In this document: positions 3,241 to 42,730 of the stretch, one piece after another
How positions within the stretch are numbered: the first letter of the stretch is position 1
Layout of the letters: each line of letters opens with the position of its first letter
DNA from: an uncultured bacterium
GTDB lineage: Bacteria; Margulisbacteria; WOR-1; CAZGTC01
Assembly: GCA_964528395.1 (NCBI GenBank)
Contig: CAZGTC010000005.1
Coordinates: forward strand, 80,840-144,839
DNA: 64,000 nt
Reading direction: 5' to 3'
The notes under the pieces: model-generated
The model's input: the letters and a program-made list of their open reading frames with translations, nothing else
What the model was told of the DNA's origin: nothing
Database searches by the model: none
Translations under genes and position numbers: made by a program

Positions 3241-5241
3241 ATGAAAAATCAATGTGTAAAGAGAAAGCCTCTGCCAGTTGCCAACAATATAAATAATGTA
3301 GCTGGAATTGAGAGAGCAATAATTTTCTTAAAGAATACAGCTTTTGCTTTCCCTAGTCAGCCTACGATTGTCAAGGTAATGCCTAGTTCTTTAGTTTTAC
3401 ATGAACAATACTTTACGGACTCCAAACTATGTGGAATTTTGCGTGATATGGGGGTTGTTGGTTTCAGAATAATAAAAAGGCATGGAGAACAGAAGGTTTT
3501 AGAAGAACTTCAAAAATTATTTGAGTATGTTTTTGATACAGATGAAAATGCAGTTGCTGCTCTAATGAAGGCGTCTATTGTTTTGGAGAAATTGCCGCAG
3601 ACCGAGGAAGCTAAAAACCCTCAGTTGAATTTAATAGATGATTTACTTACTGTTGATCGTACATCTTTAGATCCAGAGACATGTGGGATATTAGGGAATA
3701 TAGATCAATTATTGTGGGATCTTAATGGTAATAGGCGAGCCATAATAGAAGCAATTCAGACGATAAAAATAAAAGGCAAACCAATCCCTTTTTTTGTTGC
3801 AGAAGGACTTTTTGGTCGCGGCCTTATTATTGAGAGAATTATTAAAATGATCGATTTTTGTCGTTGGCAAGGTGGTAGGTTTTCAATTTCGAATGCTTCG
3901 CAAATGGCATTAACCAAGAATCCCGAAGGAGCTTTTAAAAAAGCTATTGAAATAGTAGAGATGCAAGGTAGTAGTAAAAATAAAATATTTAGTGCGGCTC
4001 AAGCAACAGAAATAGCAACCTCAAAAAATCCCCCAGCCACTTTAACCTTTGTTTTGAGCATTATGGAATTAACAGATGAGAGAAAAGAGTTTATTTTTAA
4101 TGCAGCGCAGGCCGTGCAAATAGCTATTTCTCAAAATCCAGAAGGGGCAAAACAGGACGCATTGGATGCGTATAATTGGATTGATAGCTTAGGTTGCCGA
4201 TGTTTTAATGCTTCCCAAGCTACTCGGCTGGCAACGGCAAGGGATTTTACTGCTTCAGTGGTAATTGCAGTTGATATTTTAGAGTTAAGAGGGGAAGATA
4301 AAAAAAGGTTGTTTAGCCCTAGTCAAGCAATAACAATTGCAACATCAAGTAATCCGGGAGAATCAAAAGAAATAGCTTTGGGTCTTATGCGGAAAAATGT
4401 CCAAGGGGAGAGAGTGTTTGATGCAGCCCAAGCAACAAAAATAGCAACCTCAAGAAAGCCCAGGGAATTAAGTGGGGCTATCAGCGTTATAATGCAGTTA
4501 GAAGACGAAGGTAAAAATCTTTTGTTTAATTCTGCCCAAGCGGTACAAATTGCGACAGCAAAAAATCCCAGCCACGCCCTGAATTTAGTACTAAGCTTGC
4601 TCGGGAAAAAAATTGGAGAGGAAAGAATGTTTACTCCTGCCCAAGCAATAAAAATAGCTAATTCTAAAGATCCTGAAAAAGCTGAAAAAATCCATTTAGA
4701 CATAATAAAATTGCGTGACAAAGCAGGAAACAAAATTTTTACCAGTTCGCAAGCAGCAGATATAGCATCATCTTCGAACCCAGATGTTTCACTAGAAATA
4801 GCTTTAAGAATATTGCGGATAGTAGATGTAAAAGGAAATTGTGTTTTTAATGCAGCGCAAGCAATATCAATAGTCACAGCTAAAAACCCCGAAGAAGCCT
4901 TAAGGCTTTCACAAGAGCTTCTGACTGAAGAAAAACTAGCACAACTGTCTCTTACTGTTGTGCAAGCTGTAGATATTGCAACTTCAAATAATTCACGAGT
5001 AGCTCTCTCCAGGACATTAAAAATAATTAACCTTAAAGGAGATGGAGGCGAAAAGATATTTAGCGTAAAGCAGGCAATTGCTATTGCAACTTCATCTAAT
5101 CCAAGCTTGGTAGAGGGGGCGGTACTTGCGCTTGTAAAGTTTTATGATCCAGGAGAAGCGTTAAGCATAGCATTATCACCTAAGATGGAAGAAGTTCTTA
5201 TCTCCCATGGGATTAAATTAGGAGAGAGTGAAGAAGAGTAA
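3241..5241 (+). CDS. Tandem-repeat protein with ~12 copies of a ~39-aa unit (F.AAQA.QIATSKNP...L..LL...). Function unknown.
   Basis: The periodicity is visible in the translation. The amino-acid composition is coherent and the gene starts with ATG. Confidence 0.6.
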   Translation: MKNQCVKRKPLPVANNINNVAGIERAIIFLKNTAFAFPSQPTIVKVMPSSLVLHEQYFTDSKLCGILRDMGVVGFRIIKRHGEQKVLEELQKLFEYVFDTDENAVAALMKASIVLEKLPQTEEAKNPQLNLIDDLLTVDRTSLDPETCGILGNIDQLLWDLNGNRRAIIEAIQTIKIKGKPIPFFVAEGLFGRGLIIERIIKMIDFCRWQGGRFSISNASQMALTKNPEGAFKKAIEIVEMQGSSKNKIFSAAQATEIATSKNPPATLTFVLSIMELTDERKEFIFNAAQAVQIAISQNPEGAKQDALDAYNWIDSLGCRCFNASQATRLATARDFTASVVIAVDILELRGEDKKRLFSPSQAITIATSSNPGESKEIALGLMRKNVQGERVFDAAQATKIATSRKPRELSGAISVIMQLEDEGKNLLFNSAQAVQIATAKNPSHALNLVLSLLGKKIGEERMFTPAQAIKIANSKDPEKAEKIHLDIIKLRDKAGNKIFTSSQAADIASSSNPDVSLEIALRILRIVDVKGNCVFNAAQAISIVTAKNPEEALRLSQELLTEEKLAQLSLTVVQAVDIATSNNSRVALSRTLKIINLKGDGGEKIFSVKQAIAIATSSNPSLVEGAVLALVKFYDPGEALSIALSPKMEEVLISHGIKLGESEEE

Positions 5242-6102: not shown

Positions 6103-7071
6103 TTATATTATTCTCCATAGTTCTTCTTTTGTGGTTAATCCGAGCTTGATTTTTTCTTTTCCATCTTCAGCAAGAGTTTTAAAATTTTGGCTGATGGCTT
6201 CTTGAAGATTATTTTCAACCATGAACATTTCAAATATTCCGATCCGGCCTCCCTGCGGTTTTCTGGCCAAGCGCTGGGCAACCACGCCGATTAAAGTGGC
6301 ATTGATCAAAAAATTTGGGATCCCGATATCTTTTAAGCGCGTAATCGCAGAAACTGCGTCATTGGTATGCAGGGTTGAAAGCACCAGATGCCCGGTGAGT
6401 GCGGATTGGATGGCAATTTTTGCAGTTTCTTCGTCCCGGATTTCTCCAATCATAATAATATCTGGATCCTGCCGCAAAATAGAGCGCAGCCCGCGGCTAA
6501 AAGTTAAACCAGTTTTATAATTGACCTGGATTTGATTGATTCCTGGCAGTTTATATTCAATCGGGTCTTCGATGGTTGAAATATTTACCTCGCTGGAGTT
6601 CAAAATATTGAGCGAAGCATAAAGCGTGGTAGTTTTTCCAGACCCAGTTGGACCAGTAACCAGCAAGATTCCGGTTTTTCTCTGCAGCATTTTATGGTAA
6701 AGCGTTAAGTGTTCTTTTTGCATGCCGAGATTTTCCAGCGATAAGAGCGAGTGTTCTCGATTGAGAATCCTGATGACGCATTTTTCGCCATGGCATGTCG
6801 GAATTATCGATATCCTAAGGTCCATTTTTTGGTATTGGATTCTCCCGTCTTGCGGCAATCTTTTTTCCGCAATATCCAGATGGGAGATGACTTTAATCCT
6901 GGAAACAATTTGCAAATGGGCGTCTTTTGAGAGGGAATTTATCTCATTTAAAATCCCATCGGTGCGAAAACGGACCCGGCTATTTTCTTCTTGCGGCTCA
7001 ATATGGATATCTGAAGATTTGCATTTTATAGCTTGATCTAATAGTTCGTTTAAAGTATTAATTGTGTTCAT
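6103..7071 (-). CDS. pilT: Type IV pilus retraction/twitching ATPase PilT
   Basis: GPTGSGKTTTLYASL Walker A and PilT/GspE-family sequence throughout. I moved the start to the internal Met (MNTINTLNELL) because the upstream extension lacks PilT similarity and overlaps the next gene. Confidence 0.8.
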   Translation of the reverse strand: MNTINTLNELLDQAIKCKSSDIHIEPQEENSRVRFRTDGILNEINSLSKDAHLQIVSRIKVISHLDIAEKRLPQDGRIQYQKMDLRISIIPTCHGEKCVIRILNREHSLLSLENLGMQKEHLTLYHKMLQRKTGILLVTGPTGSGKTTTLYASLNILNSSEVNISTIEDPIEYKLPGINQIQVNYKTGLTFSRGLRSILRQDPDIIMIGEIRDEETAKIAIQSALTGHLVLSTLHTNDAVSAITRLKDIGIPNFLINATLIGVVAQRLARKPQGGRIGIFEMFMVENNLQEAISQNFKTLAEDGKEKIKLGLTTKEELWRII

Positions 7072-7225
7072 ACAGGGGTAATATGCAATTTTCAGGCCAG
7101 CAATAAATAATGGAACCCACCAGCCGCCTAAAAAAAATATTTTACCAGGTGAAATTTTTTTAAGGATTGTTAGAAGGTACCTTAAGGTTTGTAAGCGTTT
7201 TATAATAAAAGACAGTTTAGTTTTT

Positions 7226-10200
7226 ATGTATATAAATTTTTTACTTGATTGTTTTCCTTTGTTAAGTTCCCCGGTTCTTATCCGCACGGAAATTTCTGAA
7301 GAGAAAAAACAATTGTTATGGAAATTGAAGTGGGAAGCTTCTCCCGAAGAAAGAGTTCGCATTGCTGAAACTTTGGGAGAATTAAAGGATGATAATGCCG
7401 CTATTATTCAAGGCCTTGCAAATGCTTCTTTGGGAGTTAGCTGGAGAGTTAATTATAAAGCCCTGGAAGCTTTGGCGACGATTAATACTTCCAAATCAAT
7501 TTCAAAACTCCTGCAGAGAATTGGCAGCTATGTTGTTTCCGCTAATTTTGCTTCTTTGGTAGAAGTTCTAAATAATCCCAAGTCAACCCTTCCGCAAAGA
7601 TTGTCAGCGCTCATAAATTTGGGGAGAATAAGAGATCGCCGGGCGGTCAAAATTTTGTGTGATATTTTATTGAACCGTAAGGAATGCTGGCAGATGCAAG
7701 CCGTGGCAGCAGAGGCCCTGGCAGAGTTTGGTTTTGAAGCGGTTGAAGCTTTGAAAAAAGCCTTAGAAAATTGCTGCTGGCGGGCAAAACCTTATATTGT
7801 CCAGTCTTTGGGAAGAATTTTTCTGCTGCATACGCTTGCATTAAAAATTACAAAAAATCCAATTTATAAAGATGCGTTGCAAGTTAAGCAAATATGCCAA
7901 AACCACAAGGCTTTGGCCGAGGGTGTTGTAAATGTCCTTATAAAAGCGATTAGGGAAAATAACTGCGTGGTTGGAAAATATGCGGCGGGTGCGCTGGCAA
8001 TGATAAAGGATGAGCAGGGGCTGCCGATTTTATTAAAGGTTTTTAGGAGTGCAGATCTGAATTTTCGCAAGCATATAGCTATGCTGGTGCTGGATAACCT
8101 AAAACAGCATTCTTTTGTTACTGGGTTCGCTTTGTTTTCCAAGCAAATATTTGAAAATATGGAGCTGGAAGAAAAAGGTTTTTTAATTTCTATAGCCAGG
8201 GAGATCTACGGTTCTGAAAAAGGCCATTTAGCGGGTTTCTACCAAATTTATCAAGTATCTCCCCCGCCGCCACAGCCTCAAGTTTATCCTGCCAGTGCCC
8301 CCAAAAAAGCAGTTATCGTAAAAAAACAAACAAAAGAAAAATCGCCGTTGGAAATAAAAAAAGGACAGTTATTAAGATCTTTACAAGAGGGTTTAACTAA
8401 ATTAAATTTTCAGGTGGCAGCGTATGAGAAAAATCGTTCTATTCCAGTACAATTGTTCCATTCATTCAAGGCTGCAATTGCCCAATTTAAGCTGCGCTGG
8501 CTGAATAAAATTAATGCTGAAATAAATAGCGGCTTAAATTTTGCTTCTTTAACAAAAGAAATTCGCCAAAATGTTGAAGGTTTATCAAATTTATTAAAGC
8601 AACAGTACGTTAATGTTTATCAAAAAACCAAGATGTATAGTATTGAAGATAAAGAAAGCGTATGTATGCGAGTGGCCGGGTGCTATGGGCTAAAAAAAAT
8701 AAAATTCCCAACTCCAGGGCTGGAAGCAAGGTGGCAGAAGTGGTGGAAGTTATATAGAAATAGCATGTATAGGGAGATCAATAAAACTATCGCCCGATAT
8801 GATATAGATAAAAAAATCTGGTTGAATAAGGCCAAGCCCGAAGAAAAACTGGCGTTGTATTATAGTTTTCAAAAGTACCGCACTTTTCTGGAAAGAGCAA
8901 AAAAAGATCTGCCCGCAATTGTAAAAACTTTGTTTTTAGCCCTGAAATTCGATGGAAACTACGAAGTCCTAAAAGATTTACTCTTCGAAAGGATTTTTCC
9001 CAGATTAGAAATTCATCAAAAGTTATCTTATAAAAACGCAGCAGGACTATATTATATAGGTAGCAAAAAATATTTGGGTAGAAATGTGCGGCAAGGAACG
9101 ATTAAGTTAAAGCAAAAAAGTACGTGTGAAAGTTATAATTTGTTTTCAGATGTTAATGTCCATGAAATCATGCATTCTTTGCCAGATAGAGGAGTAAATT
9201 ATAAAAAGGAAGCTTACAATTTGTTTTTTGAAGGCGTGACAGAATTTTTGCATCAAGTGTTAAATCAATATTTTTATCTTCCAAAATATGTTGCTTATGC
9301 GAGTGAGGTTGTATTAGTTTACGCTGCTTCGCTTTTTGATTTTAAAGCAGTGGTTGATTATTATCGCGGGGCTAATGCCATAAAATGGATGCATTTAGCT
9401 AATAAACTGTTTTTAAATTATCCAGTTTTAAAAACCGTTTTCCTTTCTTTAGAACCCAAAATCAAATCAGAGGATTCGGCTAAAAGAAAAAAGGCAGCTA
9501 TAGCTATTATCAAGGAGCGCTTTCAAGAATTAAAACCAGAAAAGATTGTGAGCTTGATCTCGCGCCCTTATCTGCCATATGATTTGCCTTTTTGGATGGG
9601 GAATTTTTATAAGTTTCTTATTAGTGAAAAAACAATTCCGGATATAAATAAGAGAAGAAACGTAGCTTATCTTCTCTTGAAAGCGTTTGTTAGGCTGGAA
9701 AAATATTATGTTATTTCTGAAAAGTCAATTATATATTTGACGGGGTTGCTTTCTTTAAAACAAAAACAACAATTGTTTGGAGATTTTTCTAGGCAGTTGC
9801 TGTTCGATTCCGCAAATCATGATATTCGCTATTTTTATCCTATTTATGCTTTAGCTTATGATATGAAAGATCTTCGATATTATATCCGAGGATTTAATCT
9901 ATTAATAAAAGCACTTGATAAGCTCAATTTTTGCACCTCGGTTAATTTGAACATAAATCCATTTAGCGTGGTTGCCCAATTAGCGCAAAGGATATTTGAA
10001 AAAAATTCGGATTTTTCATTTTTTAGGGTTGCTTGGGAGAAAATATCCCATAAATTAGAAGAAACTCCCGGCGAATATTTAAAGGGAGGAGATTATCAAG
10101 TGCTGAAAGATTTATTAAATAATTTTAAGGATGAAGAAAAAGAGGAAAAGGCAAAAAAATTCCGTTTGTTAGTAGAAAAAAAGATTAGGGAATATTTGGA

Positions 10201-10399
10201 TTATTATGTAAAAAAAGATGGTTGCTTGAATATAGTTGCAATCGGCAATTTGGAAGAACTATTTGTTGCTGATGATGAAATAAAGGCCTGGATTATTAAT
10301 CTTTTGAAAGCAAAAGAGCTGAAAGTTACAGAATTGGCAGCGCTTAAATTAAAATCATGGGGAATAAATAATCTTAAGCAAATGGTGAAAGAATGGTGA
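7226..10399 (+). CDS. Large protein (1057 aa) with N-terminal PBS-lyase-type HEAT repeats, a PPPPQPQ linker and a ~700-aa unknown domain containing an HEIMH (HExxH) motif
   Basis: HEAT-like repeats at the N-terminus (LGELKDDNAAIIQGLANA..., LGRIRDRRAVKILCDIL...AVAAEALAEFG). It is the first gene of the same-strand cluster. Confidence 0.6.
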   Translation: MYINFLLDCFPLLSSPVLIRTEISEEKKQLLWKLKWEASPEERVRIAETLGELKDDNAAIIQGLANASLGVSWRVNYKALEALATINTSKSISKLLQRIGSYVVSANFASLVEVLNNPKSTLPQRLSALINLGRIRDRRAVKILCDILLNRKECWQMQAVAAEALAEFGFEAVEALKKALENCCWRAKPYIVQSLGRIFLLHTLALKITKNPIYKDALQVKQICQNHKALAEGVVNVLIKAIRENNCVVGKYAAGALAMIKDEQGLPILLKVFRSADLNFRKHIAMLVLDNLKQHSFVTGFALFSKQIFENMELEEKGFLISIAREIYGSEKGHLAGFYQIYQVSPPPPQPQVYPASAPKKAVIVKKQTKEKSPLEIKKGQLLRSLQEGLTKLNFQVAAYEKNRSIPVQLFHSFKAAIAQFKLRWLNKINAEINSGLNFASLTKEIRQNVEGLSNLLKQQYVNVYQKTKMYSIEDKESVCMRVAGCYGLKKIKFPTPGLEARWQKWWKLYRNSMYREINKTIARYDIDKKIWLNKAKPEEKLALYYSFQKYRTFLERAKKDLPAIVKTLFLALKFDGNYEVLKDLLFERIFPRLEIHQKLSYKNAAGLYYIGSKKYLGRNVRQGTIKLKQKSTCESYNLFSDVNVHEIMHSLPDRGVNYKKEAYNLFFEGVTEFLHQVLNQYFYLPKYVAYASEVVLVYAASLFDFKAVVDYYRGANAIKWMHLANKLFLNYPVLKTVFLSLEPKIKSEDSAKRKKAAIAIIKERFQELKPEKIVSLISRPYLPYDLPFWMGNFYKFLISEKTIPDINKRRNVAYLLLKAFVRLEKYYVISEKSIIYLTGLLSLKQKQQLFGDFSRQLLFDSANHDIRYFYPIYALAYDMKDLRYYIRGFNLLIKALDKLNFCTSVNLNINPFSVVAQLAQRIFEKNSDFSFFRVAWEKISHKLEETPGEYLKGGDYQVLKDLLNNFKDEEKEEKAKKFRLLVEKKIREYLDYYVKKDGCLNIVAIGNLEELFVADDEIKAWIINLLKAKELKVTELAALKLKSWGINNLKQMVKEW

Positions 10400-10408
10400 G
10401 GTAATTTT

Positions 10409-11722
10409 ATGAGTAGTTATATACCAGGAATATCTTCTAAACCAATAAAAGTTGCCCGGGCAGATATTGATCCCCGCTGGCAGCAGGCTAAAGAATTGCT
10501 GAATAAACTCTTTAGGGAAGGCGCTATAAACAAAACTATATATAATTTGTTGTTGAATAAAATTGAAAAAAGAGAGTGGGGCCTTGAGCAGATTCAAAAT
10601 CTGGAAAAACTTTATCGGTTATATGTTCTGGTAAAAGCCTGGTTCCAAAACAATGGGCAAGCATTAATTAATTATTATGAAAGCAATTTTTCTTCCCCAA
10701 CGGCTAAAAGTATAAAATTGCCAGTAGTTTTTATGCGAGAAGCTAGAAGATACCTAATGCCAAGCGAGGTTGGGCTTAGCCGATTAAAAACTAAAATTGG
10801 CGCATTGACGCAGGCATTAAATTCTGTTGGGTTTAAAAATGCCAACGAAAACTATTTGAAATTCGGCAAATATCTTTTGGATAAGTCGGGCATTGATTGG
10901 CTGCAATACTCAATGGAAAAAATCCTGGGTATTCTAAGGCAAAATTGCCAAATAATTTTTCCCAAGTACCAAAGCCTAAAGCATCGTTACCCGATAACCT
11001 TTGCCTGTAATTTCCAAAAACCCGGCCAATTCAGGACCGACCGGATTTTGTGGAAGCCGTGGGCAGGCTACGACCTTTCCACCGGGGCAAAGAGAAGAGA
11101 GTTTTTGAAAAATAATCTTTGGGGCGAATTATTATTTATGCATATTATAACAACCCCGGAGAAATTCGGCATTACAAAAGATGATCCAGCGTATGCGGAT
11201 GTTGCCATGCTGATGCGGCACCGTTTTAGCCGTCTTTTGCAGGATTTAGCAAAGAGAAAAAAAGCAATTTTATATAGGGATGTTTGGCATATTACAAGCT
11301 ATTATCAAACAACCCCTTGGCCGCAGTGGTTTAAGGATATCTGGGAAGTCTTTTTAAGAAATCATCCTTTTATTAATCTTGGGCATAAGGTAATGGCGAT
11401 CTTGAAAGAAAAAGGATTGCCTTTGGAACTCTACGACTTTGACAGCCTTTTCAAGGTCAACCAAGCCTTGCGGCGTTTTGGGGCAGATTATTCTGCTCGG
11501 CCAGAAAAAAGGGGGACAATCGTTTTTTCAATTGCCCGACTGATACATTATCGCTCCCATTTGAGAATAAAACTTTTGCTTCCAAAGGCATTGCAAAAAG
11601 AATTCCTTTTTCTCTTGGGCCAGAAACTGCGCGAGTTGGGAATAAACGATATAAACATTTTAACTATTTTTAGTAAAATGACTAGAAGTAAAAATCAGGC
11701 AATTGTTTTTGAGGTATTCTAG
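10409..11722 (+). CDS. Hypothetical protein (437 aa)
   Basis: ORF track. Begins 10 bp after the previous gene, so it is probably co-transcribed. Confidence 0.5.
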   Translation: MSSYIPGISSKPIKVARADIDPRWQQAKELLNKLFREGAINKTIYNLLLNKIEKREWGLEQIQNLEKLYRLYVLVKAWFQNNGQALINYYESNFSSPTAKSIKLPVVFMREARRYLMPSEVGLSRLKTKIGALTQALNSVGFKNANENYLKFGKYLLDKSGIDWLQYSMEKILGILRQNCQIIFPKYQSLKHRYPITFACNFQKPGQFRTDRILWKPWAGYDLSTGAKRREFLKNNLWGELLFMHIITTPEKFGITKDDPAYADVAMLMRHRFSRLLQDLAKRKKAILYRDVWHITSYYQTTPWPQWFKDIWEVFLRNHPFINLGHKVMAILKEKGLPLELYDFDSLFKVNQALRRFGADYSARPEKRGTIVFSIARLIHYRSHLRIKLLLPKALQKEFLFLLGQKLRELGINDINILTIFSKMTRSKNQAIVFEVF

Positions 11723-11774
11723 GTTTTTAGCAGTATAATTTCATTAATGTATTATTTTTGAAAAGGAGAAAAAA

Positions 11775-12314
11775 GTGGGAATAATATCTACATCAAACTA
11801 TCATTGTTTTCTCGAAGGGCCAAGGCATCGGATCGCGATTCCGTGGACGGCAAACCTTGAACAGAGATTAAAACCAATTTATTCAGGGCATCCCCAAGAG
11901 AAACTATGCAAAGATTTGTTGATGATAAGTGAAAATATTAAAGAATTAAAAAAAGAACGGGAAGCAACGGATATCTGGTCCTGGTTAGTGCGTTGGTTTA
12001 CTAGAGGAAAATATGTTTATATTCCCGAAAAATGCCAATGCAAGCCCCGGCCTATTTATCGCCATTCTTTGCCGCCAGAAAAACAACCGTCTCGAAAAAG
12101 ACAAGCCCCACAAGTAAAGATAGAACAAACCCCTGCGGTTGTTGTTCCTCCTACTCCTAAAAAAAAGATAGATCCCAAAGTTATTCGTCAATGTACGCAG
12201 GATGAATTTCTAAGGAAAAGAAGTGCGGATAACGCCCAGGCAAAGCAATGTATAAAGGAATGTAATGGAAAGTCCGGTGCAAAGCTAGGGAATTGTACTG
12301 CTAGATTTTGGTGA
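11775..12314 (+). CDS. Small Cys-motif protein (179 aa) with a P-rich linker, paralogous to the 20159..20815 product
   Basis: Shares the YSGHPQ...C...W..W..RG....PEKCQC block with the 20159 ORF. Confidence 0.5.
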   Translation: MGIISTSNYHCFLEGPRHRIAIPWTANLEQRLKPIYSGHPQEKLCKDLLMISENIKELKKEREATDIWSWLVRWFTRGKYVYIPEKCQCKPRPIYRHSLPPEKQPSRKRQAPQVKIEQTPAVVVPPTPKKKIDPKVIRQCTQDEFLRKRSADNAQAKQCIKECNGKSGAKLGNCTARFW

Positions 12315-12339
12315 TTATTACTATAGAGGAGTTAAAAAA

Positions 12340-15300
12340 ATGGGAATGAAAGTAGAAAGAAATAATGTTCAGCATCCGCGAGGGGCTCCAAATGGAGTAG
12401 GGAGAGCAGGACAACCTTTTAACCTTCAAAAAGGTTCTTCTGCCGGAGGAATTCAAGCTTTTAGGCCGATGGTTGAAGAGAGATTAAATAAACACCCCCA
12501 TTTACAATCTTTTGATATTCTGGGAAAAATCGAAAGAATTGAAGCAGTCTTAAAAGAAGACGGCTTAAAAATAGATGTATTCGGAATTTTTGAAAAAATC
12601 CTTACTTTTTATAATCCAAATTTAGAAGGTATTGAATTAGAAGGAAAAATTGTTGCAATTGTTGATGAGGCATTATCTAATTTAAGCAATAAGGAAGATA
12701 TTTGGAAAAAATTATTGGTTTTTGATGTTCCGGGAGAGGAAACGTTTTTCCCCTTAGCAACAATGGTTCAAGTAGCGCATTTGATTTTTTTGCATAAAGA
12801 AAGCAAAGCTGGCAATCTTCCTATAACTTCTCCTTTGCAGAGCGGCCAAAATATAAAGATACTATTAGAAACATTGAGCCCTAAATCGGAAATCTATAAT
12901 TTTTATCGAATAGCAAAAGAAAAAAAATTGATTGGAACGAATCAAGCTGAAATAGAACAATTTGTAGGTAAAAATTTTGTAATCGCGGGAGAAAAAATAA
13001 AAGGGCAATGGGAAGCTCTTTATGCCACTAATCGAGAAAATGAAATTAATGACCCATTAGGGCACTTGGGTTATTTAAGTGAATTGTGGCAAAGAAGAAT
13101 TGGAACAGAAGAAGAATTAAAACTTATTGTTAAGGCTTTATGCCAGTCTGTTGGGGTTCCGTTTAGTGATGCAGCTAGTAAAAACTTTAACCCTACAGTA
13201 ATTAATTCTTCGGAGGAATTAGAAACGTTTAGGAAAAAAGAGAGAGAGATTCCTCTTTTGTCTAATGTTTTATCTGTTTGGAATTTTTCAAAAGATTCAA
13301 GAAATACATTAGTTTGTAATGATCGTAGTTTGTTTCGAAATAATTTATCTGCCCCAAAGGGTATGTGGAGAGAAAGCGATGAGGGGGTATCTTTAGAAGG
13401 AGACGCTTATTTGGAAGCTCCAATGACCGCTTCCTTGAAGAGCTTAGGCGGTCAATTTTCTTTTTCTGCCAGGATAAAGCCAGCAAATTCAGATAAATGG
13501 CGTGATTTATTGGTTACTTGTCAAAATGGAAAAACAGTGATTCTGCTGGATGGTAAAGAAACAGGCACAACTGATGTGTCTTATGTACAACTTGGAGAAG
13601 AAAAATTACAGCTTTTTAAGGGGTTTAAAGGGGTCATTGAAAACGGGTTCTCTCTCTGGTATACGGTCATGTCCCCAGAAAAAATAAAGGAAGAACAAGA
13701 GAAACAAAAAAAGGAATCATTGCAAGCAAGCTCACCGATAGTTTTCCCTCCAGTACAGAATATGAATATTTCAAGAGTTGTAGATCCAGCTCCTAAAGTT
13801 TCTGCGATGCGAGAAATTAAAGAAACTGATAAAAACCATAATGCGGGTTTAGAGCTATGGAATAAATATCTTAAATATCAAGAATATGCTGCAAAGTTAG
13901 AACGAAATCAATTGAAAAGAGCAGCAAAAATTGGTCTTTGGTTTGGAGTCCCAACTCCGCTGGTTGTTCAAACTGCAATTAAAACATGGCTAATGCTAAA
14001 TTCTGTCGAATATTTTGGAAGCTTGGGTTTTCCTATTTTTGAACTAGGGGCTGGAGTGGTAATTTTTTCCTTAGCATTTAGCATATCTTATTTTGTGAAT
14101 AAATTAATCATGAGATCAACAGAAAAGGGGTTGGGTCTTCTTGGGAAAAAAGCCGAAGATGAAAAGATGGAAAAGTTTTTGGGAATTATAAAGGGATGGT
14201 CTCAAACTGATCCGGAAAGATTTAAGGTAGCGCAAGCATTCATTACAAAGGCTGAAACTTCAGCACAAGTAGATTGGGTAATAAATTGTGTTCTTAGTGC
14301 TAAAGAAGATGAACCCCTGATGCGCTTATCTCAAGCTAGTAATGACTTAATGCAAGGTTATGCTGTTCGTGATGGGGTTTTAAGAAGAGAGGCTCCTGCT
14401 GAACTTAAAGAAAAATTGAGCAATATTCAGAAAGAGATAAAACTATTGCCATCATCAATGAGAGATTTATCTTGTGCAGAAGAAGTAAAATATGCAAAAC
14501 AAATAGCCGACTTGCAAAATAGGCTGAATAAATTATCAGAAGAGCGCGACAACAATTTTAAAAAAGATCGAGAAGATTTGCCAGTCTTGCTTGGAGAAAT
14601 AAAAATATTTTGGCAGGTTATAAAAAAGATTTCAACAGAGGGAAAAAATGAAACAGAAAAATTGGGAGATTGTTTTGGCCACCTGTGGAAGCAAATAAAT
14701 GATATTTTATGTGAACAAAATATAAGCAAAACAGGGACGATTATTTGGGAGGAATCACCGTCAATCCCAAGAGAAGATAAGCCCTTAACAGAAGAATCTT
14801 TGGAAAAGAGATTTTTTGATGCTATCAATAGAGTACAGCAGAAAACGGATTTTTTTAGGGCGAGCATTAATTTGTCAAAGAAGGAGTTAGAAGAAAAGCA
14901 GGGGTCAATTTTAGAGAGTGCTCTTACTGAAGCAGATTTTGTTGCTCTTCCCATAAAACTTCAAGGGTTTGCTCGTAACTTGATAAGCGACATATTGGCA
15001 AGCAATTTAATTTTTACCCCTCCTTCAACAGACTCTGAAGAATGGGAGGACGTTGGAGGATATAAGGTTTGTAAATTAGGGGCAGGGGGATTTGCAGATA
15101 TATATCTTACGCAAGACCAAAAAAAGATTCTAAAAATCTTAAAGCTTCAATATTTATATAGTGAAGAATCGCGCCGTTTAGTGAGAGAAGCACTAGCACA
15201 ACAACTCGTTGTACATCCTAATATTGCGAAAGTTTATGGGAGGGATGAAAAAAATGGTTGGCTAATAACAGAATATGTTAAAGGGATTACTCTTGAGGAA

Positions 15301-15915
15301 TGGATGCAGACAAACGAAAAAGGATTAACAATTATACGAGCTTTGGCTATTTTATTCCAGATTGCCGATGGATTGGAAGCAGCTTTAGTAGAAGGAGTTT
15401 TTCATCGGGATATTTCTTCTCGTAATATTATGTTAAGCGTGGAAAACCCAGCGGAACTTGTAAAAATACTTGATTTTGGAATGTGTAAATTTTTTGAAGG
15501 AGGACCGGCTTATGAAGAAGCTGCGTCAAACCCCAGGCTAAATACAGCATCAGCTCAATTTTCTAAAATGTCAGGAGGAACCCTTGATTATATTGCGCCA
15601 GAACAAGCTATAACATCTTTACAAGAGAAAGGGAAACTTAACTTTAAAGTTGATCTGTTTGCTTTGGGAGTATTATTATATCGAATGTTAACTGGTAATT
15701 TGCCTTTTAATTATGAAAATAAAGGGGTTGAACCACGTGTCCAACATGGAATAGCTTGGTTAGACGAGCAGGTAAATCCAGACTTAACAAATATTCCAGA
15801 AAAAATTCATTCCTTATTGGAGAGATTATTAAAACGAAATCCTCTAGACCGTTATGATGATTACCAAGAATTAAAAGAAGATATACTTAAAATTGCACGG
15901 TTCTATGTAATTTAG
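12340..15915 (+). CDS. Giant membrane protein (1191 aa) with a LamG/ConA-like domain, transmembrane helices, a coiled-coil region and a C-terminal Hanks-type Ser/Thr kinase-like domain with a variant catalytic loop
   Basis: Hanks subdomains are visible: LGAGGFADIY (G-loop), ILKILK, HRDISSRN, DFG, YIAPE and DLFALGVLLYRMLTG. The LamG-like stretch reads FSFSARIKP...LVTCQNGKTVILLDGKETG. Hydrophobic segments are at about residues 530-590. Confidence 0.7.
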   Translation: MGMKVERNNVQHPRGAPNGVGRAGQPFNLQKGSSAGGIQAFRPMVEERLNKHPHLQSFDILGKIERIEAVLKEDGLKIDVFGIFEKILTFYNPNLEGIELEGKIVAIVDEALSNLSNKEDIWKKLLVFDVPGEETFFPLATMVQVAHLIFLHKESKAGNLPITSPLQSGQNIKILLETLSPKSEIYNFYRIAKEKKLIGTNQAEIEQFVGKNFVIAGEKIKGQWEALYATNRENEINDPLGHLGYLSELWQRRIGTEEELKLIVKALCQSVGVPFSDAASKNFNPTVINSSEELETFRKKEREIPLLSNVLSVWNFSKDSRNTLVCNDRSLFRNNLSAPKGMWRESDEGVSLEGDAYLEAPMTASLKSLGGQFSFSARIKPANSDKWRDLLVTCQNGKTVILLDGKETGTTDVSYVQLGEEKLQLFKGFKGVIENGFSLWYTVMSPEKIKEEQEKQKKESLQASSPIVFPPVQNMNISRVVDPAPKVSAMREIKETDKNHNAGLELWNKYLKYQEYAAKLERNQLKRAAKIGLWFGVPTPLVVQTAIKTWLMLNSVEYFGSLGFPIFELGAGVVIFSLAFSISYFVNKLIMRSTEKGLGLLGKKAEDEKMEKFLGIIKGWSQTDPERFKVAQAFITKAETSAQVDWVINCVLSAKEDEPLMRLSQASNDLMQGYAVRDGVLRREAPAELKEKLSNIQKEIKLLPSSMRDLSCAEEVKYAKQIADLQNRLNKLSEERDNNFKKDREDLPVLLGEIKIFWQVIKKISTEGKNETEKLGDCFGHLWKQINDILCEQNISKTGTIIWEESPSIPREDKPLTEESLEKRFFDAINRVQQKTDFFRASINLSKKELEEKQGSILESALTEADFVALPIKLQGFARNLISDILASNLIFTPPSTDSEEWEDVGGYKVCKLGAGGFADIYLTQDQKKILKILKLQYLYSEESRRLVREALAQQLVVHPNIAKVYGRDEKNGWLITEYVKGITLEEWMQTNEKGLTIIRALAILFQIADGLEAALVEGVFHRDISSRNIMLSVENPAELVKILDFGMCKFFEGGPAYEEAASNPRLNTASAQFSKMSGGTLDYIAPEQAITSLQEKGKLNFKVDLFALGVLLYRMLTGNLPFNYENKGVEPRVQHGIAWLDEQVNPDLTNIPEKIHSLLERLLKRNPLDRYDDYQELKEDILKIARFYVI

Positions 15916-15928
15916 GAGGTAAAAAAAT

Positions 15929-17275
15929 ATGTTTATTGCTCCGCTTTCTTTTGTCCACGGGTTATTCGAATCTAATTTATTGGTTAATGCGGGGAACCCT
16001 AGAAAACCGCGGGTTTCCAAGCGCTTATTGGATTTGTTAAAAAAAATGGAAAAAGAAAAGGATCCTGCAAAAAGAGAGTTTGCTTATCTGACCTTAAAGT
16101 CATTGCTAAAGCATTCTAGGGAAAAAAATAATATGGTGCTGGTTTTAATTAATAAATTAAATTCAAAGAAATCATTGATAGATGATAAAGACGACCATAG
16201 CTTTTGTGTTAGAGTCATTGATATATTAGGAGAAACAAGAGATAAAAGAGCAACCCCGATTTTATTAAGATGGTTTAAAAATTGTCCACAAATTGCTGAG
16301 TCTCCATATGGTTTTGAAAATTGTATTACAATTAAGAAGAATATTGCAAAAGTTTTGGGAAAAATAAAGGATCATCGAGCTGTGCCGGATTTGATAGCTA
16401 TTGGGCTAGGGCATCAAGATGGAGAAGTGAGAGAAGCTTCGGCTTGGGCTTTGGGAGAAATTAGGGATCCACGAGCAATAATATCTTTGGTTAAAATGCT
16501 TGAGAGAAGGGATTATTTGTGTAATCTTTATTTTTTTGACCTTGTTATCCGAGCTTTGGCGAAGATTAAAACGAGAGATACTATTCTTGCATTAATAGGT
16601 TGTTTTAAAAAGATAGAAAAGTGTCGCATTATTACTGTCACCATAAGAATAAAAATGATTGGCAGGCGGATCTACAAATCTCATCAAAATTCTTTAGAAA
16701 AAATTTTTTTAGAAATCGCGGATGAAAAAGTGGTGAAAATGTTGAAAAATGCGGCTAAGGATACTCTTCGCAGATCTGGGAATTGGGGAACAATTGCTAG
16801 AATTATCGAAGTTTTTAAGAAAGCGGTTAAGAAAATAATTGATATAAAATATAATCAATATAGGTCAATCATTGAGGCGGCTATAATCATCAATTCACGA
16901 TATTTAACCGCATCTCGCTATCAAAAACAACAAATAATTTCGCAGTTGAGAAGAAAAGTACCGCCAAGACTAATTTCTGTGCTCTTAAGACAGGGAGCCA
17001 GGGGCTTTAATATGCAAATGTTATTAATGCTTCCCCTGGATCTTCGCCAGAGCCTTATTGCTAAAAAGCAACGAGGCGGGCAAACGGTCAAAGTATTGAG
17101 AGCGGTTTTGGGCGAAATCGAAGCCAGCAAGAACAAAGAATATTCACGGCGCATCTGTGAATTACCCTCTAAGGATAAGGCTTTTTGCAATATTATAAAA
17201 GAACTTAAGCGGAGAAAAGCGGAAGGCTCTCCTGTTTATATAGGACAACCTTCTTCTCCATGGGATGTCAAATGA
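15929..17275 (+). CDS. HEAT-repeat (PBS lyase-like) protein, 448 aa
   Basis: Repeats such as DKRATPILLRWF, DHRAVPDLIAIGLGHQDGEVREASAWALGEIRDPRAIISLVKML. Confidence 0.65.
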   Translation: MFIAPLSFVHGLFESNLLVNAGNPRKPRVSKRLLDLLKKMEKEKDPAKREFAYLTLKSLLKHSREKNNMVLVLINKLNSKKSLIDDKDDHSFCVRVIDILGETRDKRATPILLRWFKNCPQIAESPYGFENCITIKKNIAKVLGKIKDHRAVPDLIAIGLGHQDGEVREASAWALGEIRDPRAIISLVKMLERRDYLCNLYFFDLVIRALAKIKTRDTILALIGCFKKIEKCRIITVTIRIKMIGRRIYKSHQNSLEKIFLEIADEKVVKMLKNAAKDTLRRSGNWGTIARIIEVFKKAVKKIIDIKYNQYRSIIEAAIIINSRYLTASRYQKQQIISQLRRKVPPRLISVLLRQGARGFNMQMLLMLPLDLRQSLIAKKQRGGQTVKVLRAVLGEIEASKNKEYSRRICELPSKDKAFCNIIKELKRRKAEGSPVYIGQPSSPWDVK

Positions 17276-17324
17276 TCTGGAGCGTCTAGATAGTATTATG
17301 CATCTAGTTTTTAGAAGGTAAAGT

Positions 17325-18947
17325 ATGGGAAGTTTTTTGATTAATTTGTATCCGAGATTGTCTGGCTATTTGTTGGCAAGCGGGATAGATTTTGCTCGAT
17401 TGAACTCTAAAGAATTAATTGAGAAATTAAATAATAGTTTGGATTGTCGCGAGCGGGCCAAAGCTGCAGAAGAATTAGGACGAAGAAATGAAACATCAGC
17501 TATCCTGCATTTAAGAAAGACAGCAGAAAATGATCCTAGTTTTGTAGTTCGATACCAAGCAAAAAGAGCATTAGCTGAATTAGCTAAAAGAGGCTCAAGC
17601 GAAGCAGCGGAAGCAATAGTTGGCGACGCACCGCTTGAAGTTTATGTAGGATCGCTTAGAGAAGGGAAAGTTACATATTCTATTCCTAACGTTTATTCAA
17701 AAATCAAATATTCAGAACTAATTGAATATTTAGGAAAACCCTTGAGCAATACTCCTTTTTCTGATTGGAGAAATCCCAATGATACAGGACTTGTTTCTAG
17801 CAAAGCAGCCCTTAAAATATTTGGAAACAAGGATAATTTTTGGAAGAAATTTTTTAGAGATACTAGCGCGGACGAGCTAGTTTTTAAGCCAGATACAACG
17901 GAAAAGACCTTTACGGGTTTTTATAATAAAGAGCAACGGAATAAATTTTATGTGCTCTGGCGCCGAATCCAGGAAGAAAGTAAATGGACAAATCGATTTT
18001 TAAGCCAACCCTATTTTGGCGGAAGTTTTTTCTATCGGGGTTTGGCGCGTTTCTTGCTTAATGGTGAGGAAGGAAGCATGCTTGATCCAGAAAAGGAATA
18101 TCAAGCTTTGGACTTACGGGGAAGCATGGAGAGAATTGGGCTTAATTTAGCAATAGATATGCGCGATTTTTATTTTCCTTTTATTGCTGGTTTTGGGGGA
18201 GCCTTTGATTTTCGTTTCAATTTTTTTACTGGTGATGTAAATGGTAGGGCAAAGGGAAAGGCGGATCTCGATGCTTATCCTCGATTATATCTAAGAAATA
18301 GAAATTGGTTGGCAGAAATAGGATTTTATACCAAATCTTGGGGCGAACAAGCATTTGGAGGAAAGGCCGCGATTTCTTTTTCGCTAGAGAATTTTTTTTC
18401 AAAGCTTTCAGTCGCATATTATAAAAAAAGGACTAACTCGGATTCTGGCTTCTTTGATATTCGATTAGACGGGGGATTAAAATTTGGAAAAAAACATGAT
18501 TTTTTCTTTTTATTTAATGGGATAATTTTTCATACTGCTTCAATTAGTGCTACCCTCTTTTTTCAAACTGGAATTGGATACCGTTACTTAGACTTTTTTT
18601 ACTCGTCTTTATATTTAGATTTTTCCGAATCTTATTTTTCTTACAAAATTCTTATGGGGAGCAGGCCGTTAAAATACTTTAGCGTGGAATTATTTCACCA
18701 GAATTTTCCTTATATTAAGCAGAATCTTTTTATTAGTAACGTTGTTTCTTTTGGTGCTTTGGTGTCCGCAGGTCTGGGAAAAGAATTTGAAGTATTTTTT
18801 GAATATAGATTTTGTAAAGCTGAAAAAGGAATGTTTGGAGATATTAATACCAGCGAACATTGGCTGGCGGCTGGGATCCGATGGGTGATTGCTGGAAAAA
18901 ATAATCCGCGCAATCCGATTTCAAGGTTAGAATATGTTAGTTATTAG
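17325..18947 (+). CDS. Protein (540 aa) with an N-terminal HEAT repeat and an aromatic/Gly-rich C-terminal region resembling beta-barrel amphipathic strands
   Basis: N-terminus reads RERAKAAEELGRRNETSAILHLRKTAENDPSFVVRYQAKRALAEL. The C-terminal region has alternating aromatic residues (FDFRFNFF, FFFLFNGIIFHTASISATLFFQTGIGYRYLDFFY). Confidence 0.55.
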   Translation: MGSFLINLYPRLSGYLLASGIDFARLNSKELIEKLNNSLDCRERAKAAEELGRRNETSAILHLRKTAENDPSFVVRYQAKRALAELAKRGSSEAAEAIVGDAPLEVYVGSLREGKVTYSIPNVYSKIKYSELIEYLGKPLSNTPFSDWRNPNDTGLVSSKAALKIFGNKDNFWKKFFRDTSADELVFKPDTTEKTFTGFYNKEQRNKFYVLWRRIQEESKWTNRFLSQPYFGGSFFYRGLARFLLNGEEGSMLDPEKEYQALDLRGSMERIGLNLAIDMRDFYFPFIAGFGGAFDFRFNFFTGDVNGRAKGKADLDAYPRLYLRNRNWLAEIGFYTKSWGEQAFGGKAAISFSLENFFSKLSVAYYKKRTNSDSGFFDIRLDGGLKFGKKHDFFFLFNGIIFHTASISATLFFQTGIGYRYLDFFYSSLYLDFSESYFSYKILMGSRPLKYFSVELFHQNFPYIKQNLFISNVVSFGALVSAGLGKEFEVFFEYRFCKAEKGMFGDINTSEHWLAAGIRWVIAGKNNPRNPISRLEYVSY

Positions 18948-18960
18948 GAGCTAAATTATT

Positions 18961-41611: not shown

Positions 41612-42730
41612 TTACTTTTTCTCTCCGAGTTTGATTAGTTGTTTGAGGCCTTCGTCAAGATTGGACTGGTTGTCTTTTATTGGTTCAGTTAATTTGCTTT
41701 CCGGCAATGAATAGAATTTTGAAAGGGATTCTTTTTCTTGTTTTTGCTTTTGGGCAAAGGTATCGGTTTTTGGCAAGCTATAGGAAAGGGAGAAAAAGTG
41801 GGCAGAGTTGCCTTCAATCTGGCTGTCTTGGCGGAAAGCATAGTCAAATGAGAACCCTTTATAATTCAAGCCAACCCCAGCGCTGATATGGCTAAGCGTG
41901 CCTTCTACAGAAGGGTCTTGGTCTAGCCCCAAGCGCAGGGAGATAAAATCAACTGGCGCATATTCTGTTCCAATGTGCACGGTCAAAGGCCGGTCCTGGG
42001 TAATGTTTAAATTTGTTTCAAGGGACAAAAGCAGCTTGTTTTCCCAGATTTTTTTGCTCATTCCAGCATTAAAGCTGGTAGGCAGGTTTTCTTTTGTGCC
42101 AGATTCCCATAAAAGGCCGTTTTTCCCGTTGATGGCATTTTTTACGGTTAATCCAAAGGCTGCATCATCTTCTTTAACAAGCAAAAGCCCGATGTCTAAG
42201 CTGGTTCCGCTGGCTTGGGCTTTGGACAAATTACTTCCTCCGGAAAAGCCTTTTTGAAAAGCCTTAGCAGTAATTCCAATGCAAAAACTGCCGATTTCAG
42301 AAGGGGCATAAAGGATCTCGTTTAAATTCAACCCATAAGATAATAGAATGGTAGTATCTTGATAACTGATAGCTTGCGCAGAATTTAGGGACGCTTTATC
42401 CGTTGTATAGTATCCAGCTGGAGTGGCTGCAGAAATAAAGCCAATTCCTAGGGTTCCGGTATTGACTGGAATGGATCCGCTAGCTAGCTGATAATTTACA
42501 CGGTCCAAAAGCCGGGTAGACATGCTGCTAATGGACCAGGTTTTGGTATAACCTAATCCTGCGGGGTTGGAGAAAACAGCGTTAGAATTATCTGCGATGG
42601 CGATATAGCTGCGTCCCAAACCGATGGCCCGGGCACCGATCCCAATAGAAGAAGTATCAACGTTAGTTTTGGCCCAACATAAAGTACTGGATAAAACGGC
42701 AATTAATACGAAAATTAAAATTTTTCTCAT
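41612..42730 (-). CDS. Outer-membrane beta-barrel protein with signal peptide, possibly a PorV/UPF0164-like shuttle
   Basis: Signal peptide MRKILIFVLIAVLSSTLCWA followed by GIGARAIGLGRSYIAIADNSNAVFSNPAGL and beta-strand periodicity. Confidence 0.6.
   Translation of the reverse strand: MRKILIFVLIAVLSSTLCWAKTNVDTSSIGIGARAIGLGRSYIAIADNSNAVFSNPAGLGYTKTWSISSMSTRLLDRVNYQLASGSIPVNTGTLGIGFISAATPAGYYTTDKASLNSAQAISYQDTTILLSYGLNLNEILYAPSEIGSFCIGITAKAFQKGFSGGSNLSKAQASGTSLDIGLLLVKEDDAAFGLTVKNAINGKNGLLWESGTKENLPTSFNAGMSKKIWENKLLLSLETNLNITQDRPLTVHIGTEYAPVDFISLRLGLDQDPSVEGTLSHISAGVGLNYKGFSFDYAFRQDSQIEGNSAHFFSLSYSLPKTDTFAQKQKQEKESLSKFYSLPESKLTEPIKDNQSNLDEGLKQLIKLGEKK

Follow-up and report, generated by a model that had tools for sequence, protein, structure and literature searches.

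We found that two small proteins, 179 and 218 amino acid residues long and encoded in the same gene cluster, share a homologous domain of about 90 residues, which on present evidence forms a new sequence family and cannot be assigned to any superfamily. Both genes lie in the window, by which we mean the whole 64,000-nucleotide stretch of DNA that was analysed. The two copies of the domain (Table 1) were aligned by BLASTP at E = 1e-10 with two single-residue gaps, and 27 of the 91 positions are identical (30%) and 45 of the 91 similar. Their Smith-Waterman score is 114, compared with a mean of 39.8, a standard deviation of 6.7 and a maximum of 82 over 2000 shuffles (z = 11.0). Because the aligned block leaves out the low-complexity proline segments, the similarity is not compositional. 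The paralogy of a ~90-residue block, which an earlier note on this DNA had put forward, is thus significant by pairwise alignment; the sequences given in that note were exact and both ORFs are as it described them, but its coordinates, 11775-12314, span only one of the two copies. A two-copy profile, searched without any filter through all six translated frames of the window, found no further copy of the domain.

The domain is built into two protein architectures. In the 179-aa protein, the Pro/Lys-rich linker follows the domain and leads to a 44-residue tail bearing four cysteines, which has no counterpart in the alignment with the other two members of the family, whereas in the 218-aa protein the Pro-rich linker precedes the domain and is itself preceded by a basic extension. 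The positions of the linkers on opposite sides uphold the earlier proposal of one domain placed in two architectures. A perfect trinucleotide microsatellite, (CCA)5.7(CCT)8.3 at positions 20435-20474, codes for the poly-proline run in the 218-aa protein and could change in length in frame by slippage. The domain proteins of the window were found in NCBI, ENA and Logan assemblies and are singletons at 90% identity. Two further assemblies are 100% identical to the window over this region, microsatellite included, and dN/dS is therefore not computable. The scan for promoters and terminators stayed at chance level, and Rfam gave zero matches within the window.

Table 1. Positions in the window of the two domain genes, of the segments of their products and of the neighbouring genes in the cluster.
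Feature	Start	End	Strand	Basis or remark
Co-directional, tightly spaced cluster with both domain genes	7226	22857	+	gaps of 9-52 nt, one of 200 nt
Gene, 1057-aa HEAT protein	7226		+	HEIMH at residues 646-650
Gene, 437-aa protein	10409		+	no known family
Gene, 179-aa domain protein	11775	12314	+	ORF; GTG start; AGGAG ribosome-binding site ~7 nt upstream; P0001 in public assemblies
Domain copy 1, residues 4-94 of the 179-aa protein	11784	12056	+	BLASTP, alignments, AF2 model (pLDDT 75.7)
Pro/Lys-rich linker, residues 95-135 of the 179-aa protein, C-terminal to the domain	12057	12179	+	translation
C-terminal tail, residues 136-179 of the 179-aa protein, with C140, C159, C163 and C174	12180	12311	+	translation
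Gene, 1191-aa protein, Ser/Thr kinase domain at the C-terminus, hydrophobic segment near residues 560-591	12340		+	Pkinase, 3.9e-34
Gene, 448-aa protein	15929		+	HEAT
Gene, 540-aa protein	17325		+	HEAT at the N-terminus
Gene, 393-aa protein	18961		+	HEAT
Gene, 218-aa domain protein	20159	20815	+	ORF; identical call on a Logan contig
N-terminal extension, residues 1-88 of the 218-aa protein, basic, Lys/Arg/Glu/Gln-rich	20159	20422	+	translation
Poly-proline / Pro-rich linker (S-PP-S-P14...), residues 89-123 of the 218-aa protein, N-terminal to the domain	20423	20527	+	translation, repeat analysis
Domain copy 2, residues 124-212 of the 218-aa protein	20528	20794	+	BLASTP, alignments
Gene, 613-aa protein	21016		+	multi-HEAT

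When 1.84 billion representative proteins were scanned exhaustively with HMMER, four came out at E ≤ 1e-3, namely the 179-aa protein itself, P0006, P0005 and P0007. P0006, a protein of 140 residues from a second metagenome-assembled genome (MAG) labelled "Pseudomonadota bacterium" by its submitter, matched profile positions 12-101 at E = 3.7e-5 and is a third member of the family; BLASTP aligned it with both window copies, at 2e-10 and 5e-8, and the shuffle statistics gave z = 14.3 and 14.2. P0007 is a repeat protein that matches dozens of unrelated Pfam families and was dropped as promiscuous; P0005 is discussed below. P0006 consists of the domain at the N-terminus followed by a basic, Lys/Arg-rich tail that contains no Cys, and it shares the domain-first order with the 179-aa protein (domain, linker, Cys-rich tail). 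In view of this layout of P0006, the ancestral form probably had an N-terminal domain followed by a tail, with the N-terminal extension of the 218-aa protein a probable later gain. The family as sampled amounts to three proteins in two metagenome-assembled genomes, among ~15 billion proteins. A word-indexed search of 5.8 billion clusters returned nothing with the two-copy alignment, and such a search with all three sequences gave only the input sequences back. The species genomes of GTDB yielded the P0006 contig only, the JGI metagenomes yielded nothing with either the domain alignment or the neighbouring 437-aa protein, and tblastn against phage records and plasmid records found nothing.

Fifteen positions are invariant in all three sequences, which are 25-30% identical to one another. 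In the numbering of the 179-aa protein these are C11, L13, E14, G15, S37, G38, H39, P40, C45, F75, R77, G78, P84, C87 and C89, and the same set in the 218-aa protein reads C131, L133-E134-G135, S157-G158-H159-P160, C165, F193, R195-G196, P202, C205 and C207. Four Cys and one His make up a third of the invariant positions, three sequences being too few to tell the conservation of ligands from that of the core in general. The products of both window genes and P0006 all contain the pattern C-[KF]-L-E-G ... S-G-H-P-x4-C ... F-x-R-G-x5-P-x2,3-C-x-C within ~90 residues, and the spacing of the putative ligands is C-x27-H-x5-C-x41-C-x-C. The domain had been described in the earlier note by a Cys/Trp motif. 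The conserved Cys pattern, for which the note left metal binding and disulfide formation open, holds in three sequences at this low identity, but the Trp half of the motif does not: W24 and W74 are Phe in P0006, and what is kept there is the aromatic character alone.

The structure of the domain was predicted with AF2. With two sequences the model reached a pLDDT of 48.5, was unusable and was left out of the fold search, and with the three-sequence alignment the mean pLDDT was 75.7 and the pTM 0.58, with 81 of the 93 residues at pLDDT 70-90. The predicted domain contains a first β-hairpin (strands 6-19), four α-helices (25-29, 39-47, 50-60 and 64-72) and a last β-hairpin (strands 76-88). In the numbering of the model, C8 is placed in the first hairpin, H36 and C42 at the start of the helical core, and C84 and C86 in the last hairpin. 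A Foldseek search with the model of pLDDT 75.7 found no structural neighbour (best PDB match E = 2.5, TM ≤ 0.28; best BFVD match E = 1.5) and no DNA-binding fold. Judged by these comparisons of a predicted model with the PDB and BFVD, the fold may provisionally be called new.

Comparisons with sequence families gave the same picture. Pfam had no family for the domain even at E ≤ 10 on the three isolated domains, NCBIfam gave noise only (E 0.045-0.38, in the poly-Pro region), the best PHROGs match had E = 0.035 with no family match, and PADLOC had nothing in the domain. Profiles run against all PDB sequences reached E = 0.034 (titin) and 0.5 at best, which is noise; titin, the AMPK alpha-2 chain 2ltu and Rns, with E-values of 0.03-0.7, were all rejected on this ground. 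The statement in the earlier note that the domain matches no known family therefore stands, by sequence (Pfam, NCBIfam, PHROGs, PADLOC and PDB) as well as by predicted structure (Foldseek against PDB and BFVD).

The nearest concept is a small domain of the zinc-ribbon type, yet no search supports membership. Zinc ribbons carry two β-hairpin 'knuckles' that donate Cys ligands, and CxxC knuckles define them. The present domain is likewise small and probably cytoplasmic, with Cys in or beside the N- and C-terminal β-hairpins of the predicted model. It differs in having neither a CxxC nor a CPxCG knuckle, with a single Cys in the first hairpin and C-x-C in the last, and in having ~55 helical residues between the hairpins as well as an additional invariant SGHPxxxxC. 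Pfam, NCBIfam, PDB sequences and Foldseek all gave no zinc-ribbon match.

Both domain genes belong to a cluster of genes for HEAT-repeat proteins and a Ser/Thr kinase. A gap of 25 nt separates the 179-aa gene from the downstream kinase gene, whose kinase domain looks intact. The 218-aa gene starts ~4.2 kb after the kinase gene has ended, has HEAT genes as neighbours and is directly followed by the multi-HEAT gene at 21016. This last arrangement has a counterpart in the second MAG, in which the P0006 gene is followed directly downstream by a gene for a 349-aa HEAT protein and then by one for a 668-aa multi-HEAT protein; the latter matches the 21016 product at E = 4.5e-35. The association of the domain with HEAT-repeat genes thus recurs in a second genome. 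At the P0006 locus, no kinase is encoded within the 10 kb of contig covered, the upstream side being cut by the contig start, 236 nt from the P0006 gene. Since HEAT-repeat genes are common, their presence next to the domain genes in two genomes argues weakly for a physical interaction. The recurrent partners are HEAT proteins of the PBS-lyase type (HEAT_PBS / HEAT_2), whereas the domain proteins themselves carry no HEAT repeat. Against the models of CpcE, CpcF and NblB, the HEAT neighbours score 21-41 bits, far below cut-offs of 220-330, and the cluster HEAT proteins are therefore generic scaffolds and not phycobilin lyases. The 437-aa, 1057-aa and 540-aa neighbours showed HEAT/alphaRep similarity only when compared with the PDB. 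The cluster was also considered as a defence system; this reading was rejected, the PADLOC matches being generic kinase and HEAT matches only.

Several further features of the cluster were observed. Its G+C content is 0.345-0.373 (~8000-22000), compared with 0.39-0.43 in the housekeeping flanks; patches of low G+C also occur at 36-40 kb and 44-50 kb of the window, and such regions may be islands or lineage-specific genes. Short hydrophobic N-termini without a basic n-region are found on several cluster proteins (7226, 15929, 17325, 18961, 20159 and 21016), unlike the clear Sec signals on the products of 41612, 42921 and 33001. The products of 18961 and 20159 have their first ~20 residues in common (MYGI[TS]L[IL]...; z = 8.4 for the local alignment, equalled by 0 of 500 shuffles), and the shared N-termini may be a targeting or recognition tag, or the trace of a duplication of 5' ends. 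In the 1057-aa protein, an HExxH motif (HEIMH, 9161-9175) lies within the large C-terminal part that is not HEAT; this motif has no Pfam or PDB support and could mark a metalloprotease-like site. The 5' ends of this ORF (7226-10399, + strand) and of the divergent ORF 6103-7362 (- strand), which encodes a GspE/PilB-like ATPase, overlap by 137 nt (7226-7362); the ATPase domain starts at residue ~100, and at least one of the two start codons has probably been set too far upstream. The 540-aa protein (17325-18947, + strand) has one N-terminal HEAT_2 and a long Gly/aromatic-rich C-terminal region ending in ...LEYVSY, which by eye looks like an outer-membrane β-barrel and has no family or PDB match. 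In the 613-aa HEAT protein, positions 21885-22795 hold 9.7 tandem units of 93 nt (31 aa) with 75% DNA identity, a recently expanded HEAT_PBS array. The long antisense ORF 21354-22007 over this gene is an artefact.

Elsewhere in the window, a PorV/PorQ-family outer-membrane protein (41612-42730, - strand) scores 107 bits against a cut-off of 90, and next to it lies a gene for a protein of 1593 aa (42921-47702, - strand) that combines fn3/Big domains with a C-terminal region resembling PorU and a weak T9SS sorting domain; together the PorV/PorQ protein and this giant PorU-like protein indicate a type IX secretion system (T9SS), a hint at the affinity of the organism. For QueA, some homologues reach 80% identity and those from named organisms are Clostridia at ≤58%, which does not inform on its placement. 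An FtsH homologue (55013-58165, + strand) is 1050 aa long, FtsH usually having about 600-650 aa, and Pfam Intein_splicing matches its residues 256-685, inside the AAA region, so that it appears to contain an intein. The 666-aa product of 3241-5241 (+ strand) has no Pfam match and is probably a helical repeat protein of another kind than the TAL effector AvrBs3, with whose repeat region it scores a weak 32 bits against a cut-off of 1000.

The explanation that we prefer for the domain is that of a binding module with a metal site, docking on the HEAT scaffolds and/or the kinase, and as a composite it falls a little short of an even chance. Conserved Cys and His residues of proteins in the reducing cytoplasm are usually metal ligands. 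As for the location of these proteins, no segment of either window protein reaches the hydropathy threshold for a membrane helix, and no signal peptide was detected in the domain proteins. Two members, the 179-aa protein and P0006, have the domain at their very N-terminus (start at residue 1-4), and an in-frame stop shortly before leaves their ORFs no room to be longer, nine codons being the upper limit for the 179-aa ORF. From this start of the domain, the lack of an upstream extension and the lack of a membrane-helix segment, the domain proteins should be soluble and cytoplasmic, as far as their sequences tell. The Cys of the first hairpin, the His and Cys of SGHPxxxxC and the C-x-C of the last hairpin would then form a structural metal site, the metal most likely being zinc, as Zn(Cys)3-4/His, and this site would tie both hairpins to the helical core. 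The chances of this putative metal-binding step, taken by itself, are about balanced. Against the preferred explanation, no metal-binding family, zinc ribbon or other known fold was matched by sequence or structure, and C-x27-H-x5-C-x41-C-x-C is no recognised zinc motif. The domain would serve as a small binding module tethered by the Pro-rich linker, as a flexible or rigid spacer, to a variable second segment, which may be the Cys-rich tail, the basic tail or the basic Lys/Arg/Glu/Gln-rich N-terminal extension, and its docking partners would be the HEAT-repeat scaffolds of the cluster and/or the membrane-associated Ser/Thr kinase. For this putative adaptor step our expectation is lower than for metal binding.

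The domain might alternatively be a nucleic-acid-binding zinc finger. The proteins would then be small regulators or nucleoid-associated factors, not adaptors, and their basic tails and linkers would touch DNA or RNA. The charge of the proteins fits such a role: the three have pI values of 9.8, 10.3 and 10.4, the domains alone have 9.3-9.9, and the C-terminal tail of P0006 is rich in Lys/Arg. Nearly all cluster proteins, however, have a pI of 9.3-10.2, so that basicity is unspecific. A weak, repeat-amplified profile match to the zinc-finger repeats of P0005, a protein of 1151 aa with a MULE transposase domain, points in the same direction. The two-copy profile gave a summed E of 2.8e-6 over five repeats, with the local match 'SHNHPTQEILKDKMVISQNIKE' vs 'SGHPQEKLCKDLLMISENIKE', but this score is a sum over five near-identical repeats, and the likeness fails the profile-profile test, the hhalign probability being 10.5% over 24 columns in the helical SGHP region only. 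The P0005 repeats, which precede the MULE domain and which we take to resemble the FLYWCH / WRKY-GCM1 class, use C-x4-C...H-x-H ligands; the present domain has neither the second Cys of the C-x4-C pair nor the H-x-H pair. A Pfam scan of P0005 at E ≤ 0.01 gave MULE and one sub-threshold match and no zinc-finger family, and we treat the likeness as a chance local match. With no DNA-binding fold from Foldseek either, a nucleic-acid-binding role is unlikely.

The position of the 179-aa gene, directly upstream of the intact-looking kinase gene, also allows the domain proteins to be primarily docking or regulatory partners, or substrates, of that Ser/Thr kinase, with phosphorylation of their Ser/Thr-Pro-rich linkers. 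S-P and T-P sites do occur in the linkers (SPPSPP, TPAVVVPPTPK). This reading overlaps with the preferred one, in which the kinase is a candidate docking partner. The second window copy, however, is distant from the kinase gene and next to HEAT genes, the P0006 locus has HEAT genes and no kinase in the 10 kb covered, and the tail of P0006 is without S-P or T-P sites. A specific tie to the kinase is accordingly rather improbable.

The even number of invariant Cys residues (4) could instead belong to disulfides that stabilise an extracytoplasmic module, exported by a non-classical route, perhaps by way of the short hydrophobic, non-basic N-termini that the 218-aa protein has in common with several HEAT neighbours. 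Secretion machinery is encoded in the window (T9SS PorV/PorQ family, GspE-like ATPase). But a hydrophobic segment is absent from the N-termini of the 179-aa protein and P0006, and no T9SS C-terminal sorting domain and no Sec/Tat signal were detected in the domain proteins; the lack of an export signal and the start of the domain at residue 1-4 in two members favour a metal site over disulfides. The invariant His beside Cys likewise suits a metal site better, and we hold the disulfide reading to be very improbable.

The layout of the 179-aa protein, a domain followed by a linker and a Cys-rich tail, resembles that of a RiPP precursor, in which the domain would be the leader or recognition domain, the tail the core, and the kinase-domain neighbour an aid to processing. 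Kinase-domain processing enzymes are found in class III/IV lanthipeptide systems, and the kinase domain does match the LanL and LanKC models weakly, but its 38.7 and 19.1 bits stand against cut-offs of 650 and 575 and reflect a generic kinase domain only. Furthermore, lyase and cyclase domains are missing from the cluster, the 218-aa protein carries the conserved domain at its C-terminus, where a leader would not be, the tail of P0006 contains no Cys, and leader models of the NHLP/Nif11 type in NCBIfam match neither window protein at E ≤ 1. The RiPP reading is far-fetched. Finally, chance or compositional similarity, or ORFs that are not genes, could be argued only from the shortness of the proteins and from their low-complexity linkers, and this reading is refuted by BLASTP, by the third member found with HMMER, which keeps the same invariant residues in an unrelated assembly, by the shuffle statistics (z = 11-14, with the alignment outside the low-complexity linkers), and by the ribosome-binding sites of both genes within a co-directional array, leaving it a negligible chance.

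Starting again from the preferred reading, a metal-site module that docks on HEAT scaffolds and/or the kinase, a bolder version can be drawn, which we consider quite doubtful. The domain would be a new metal-binding fold and would serve specifically in the assembly of, or in recognition within, a machine restricted to the lineage and associated with the envelope, and its paralogues would bridge pairs of partners. The parts of such a machine would be the PBS-type HEAT scaffolds, the membrane Ser/Thr kinase and the HEAT protein with the possible β-barrel C-terminal region, and the shared short N-termini would be a possible targeting tag. With the domain before a rigid poly-proline spacer in one paralogue and after it in the other, the two would then join different partner pairs.

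If confirmed, the domain would be a new family and possibly a new small metal-binding fold. "New" here covers the sequence family and, provisionally, the fold; a small Cys/His module as an idea is not new. Given how narrowly it is distributed, its impact on general biology will probably be small, unless more divergent relatives widen the family. The practical value is modest and consists of a family entry and a compact fold, for which three sequences are enough to give a reasonable AlphaFold model. For the biology of this poorly sampled bacterial lineage, the domain would, if confirmed, give the first handle on otherwise featureless HEAT-repeat/kinase genes, and it becomes testable whether small Cys/His modules are linked to the HEAT scaffolds of bacteria.
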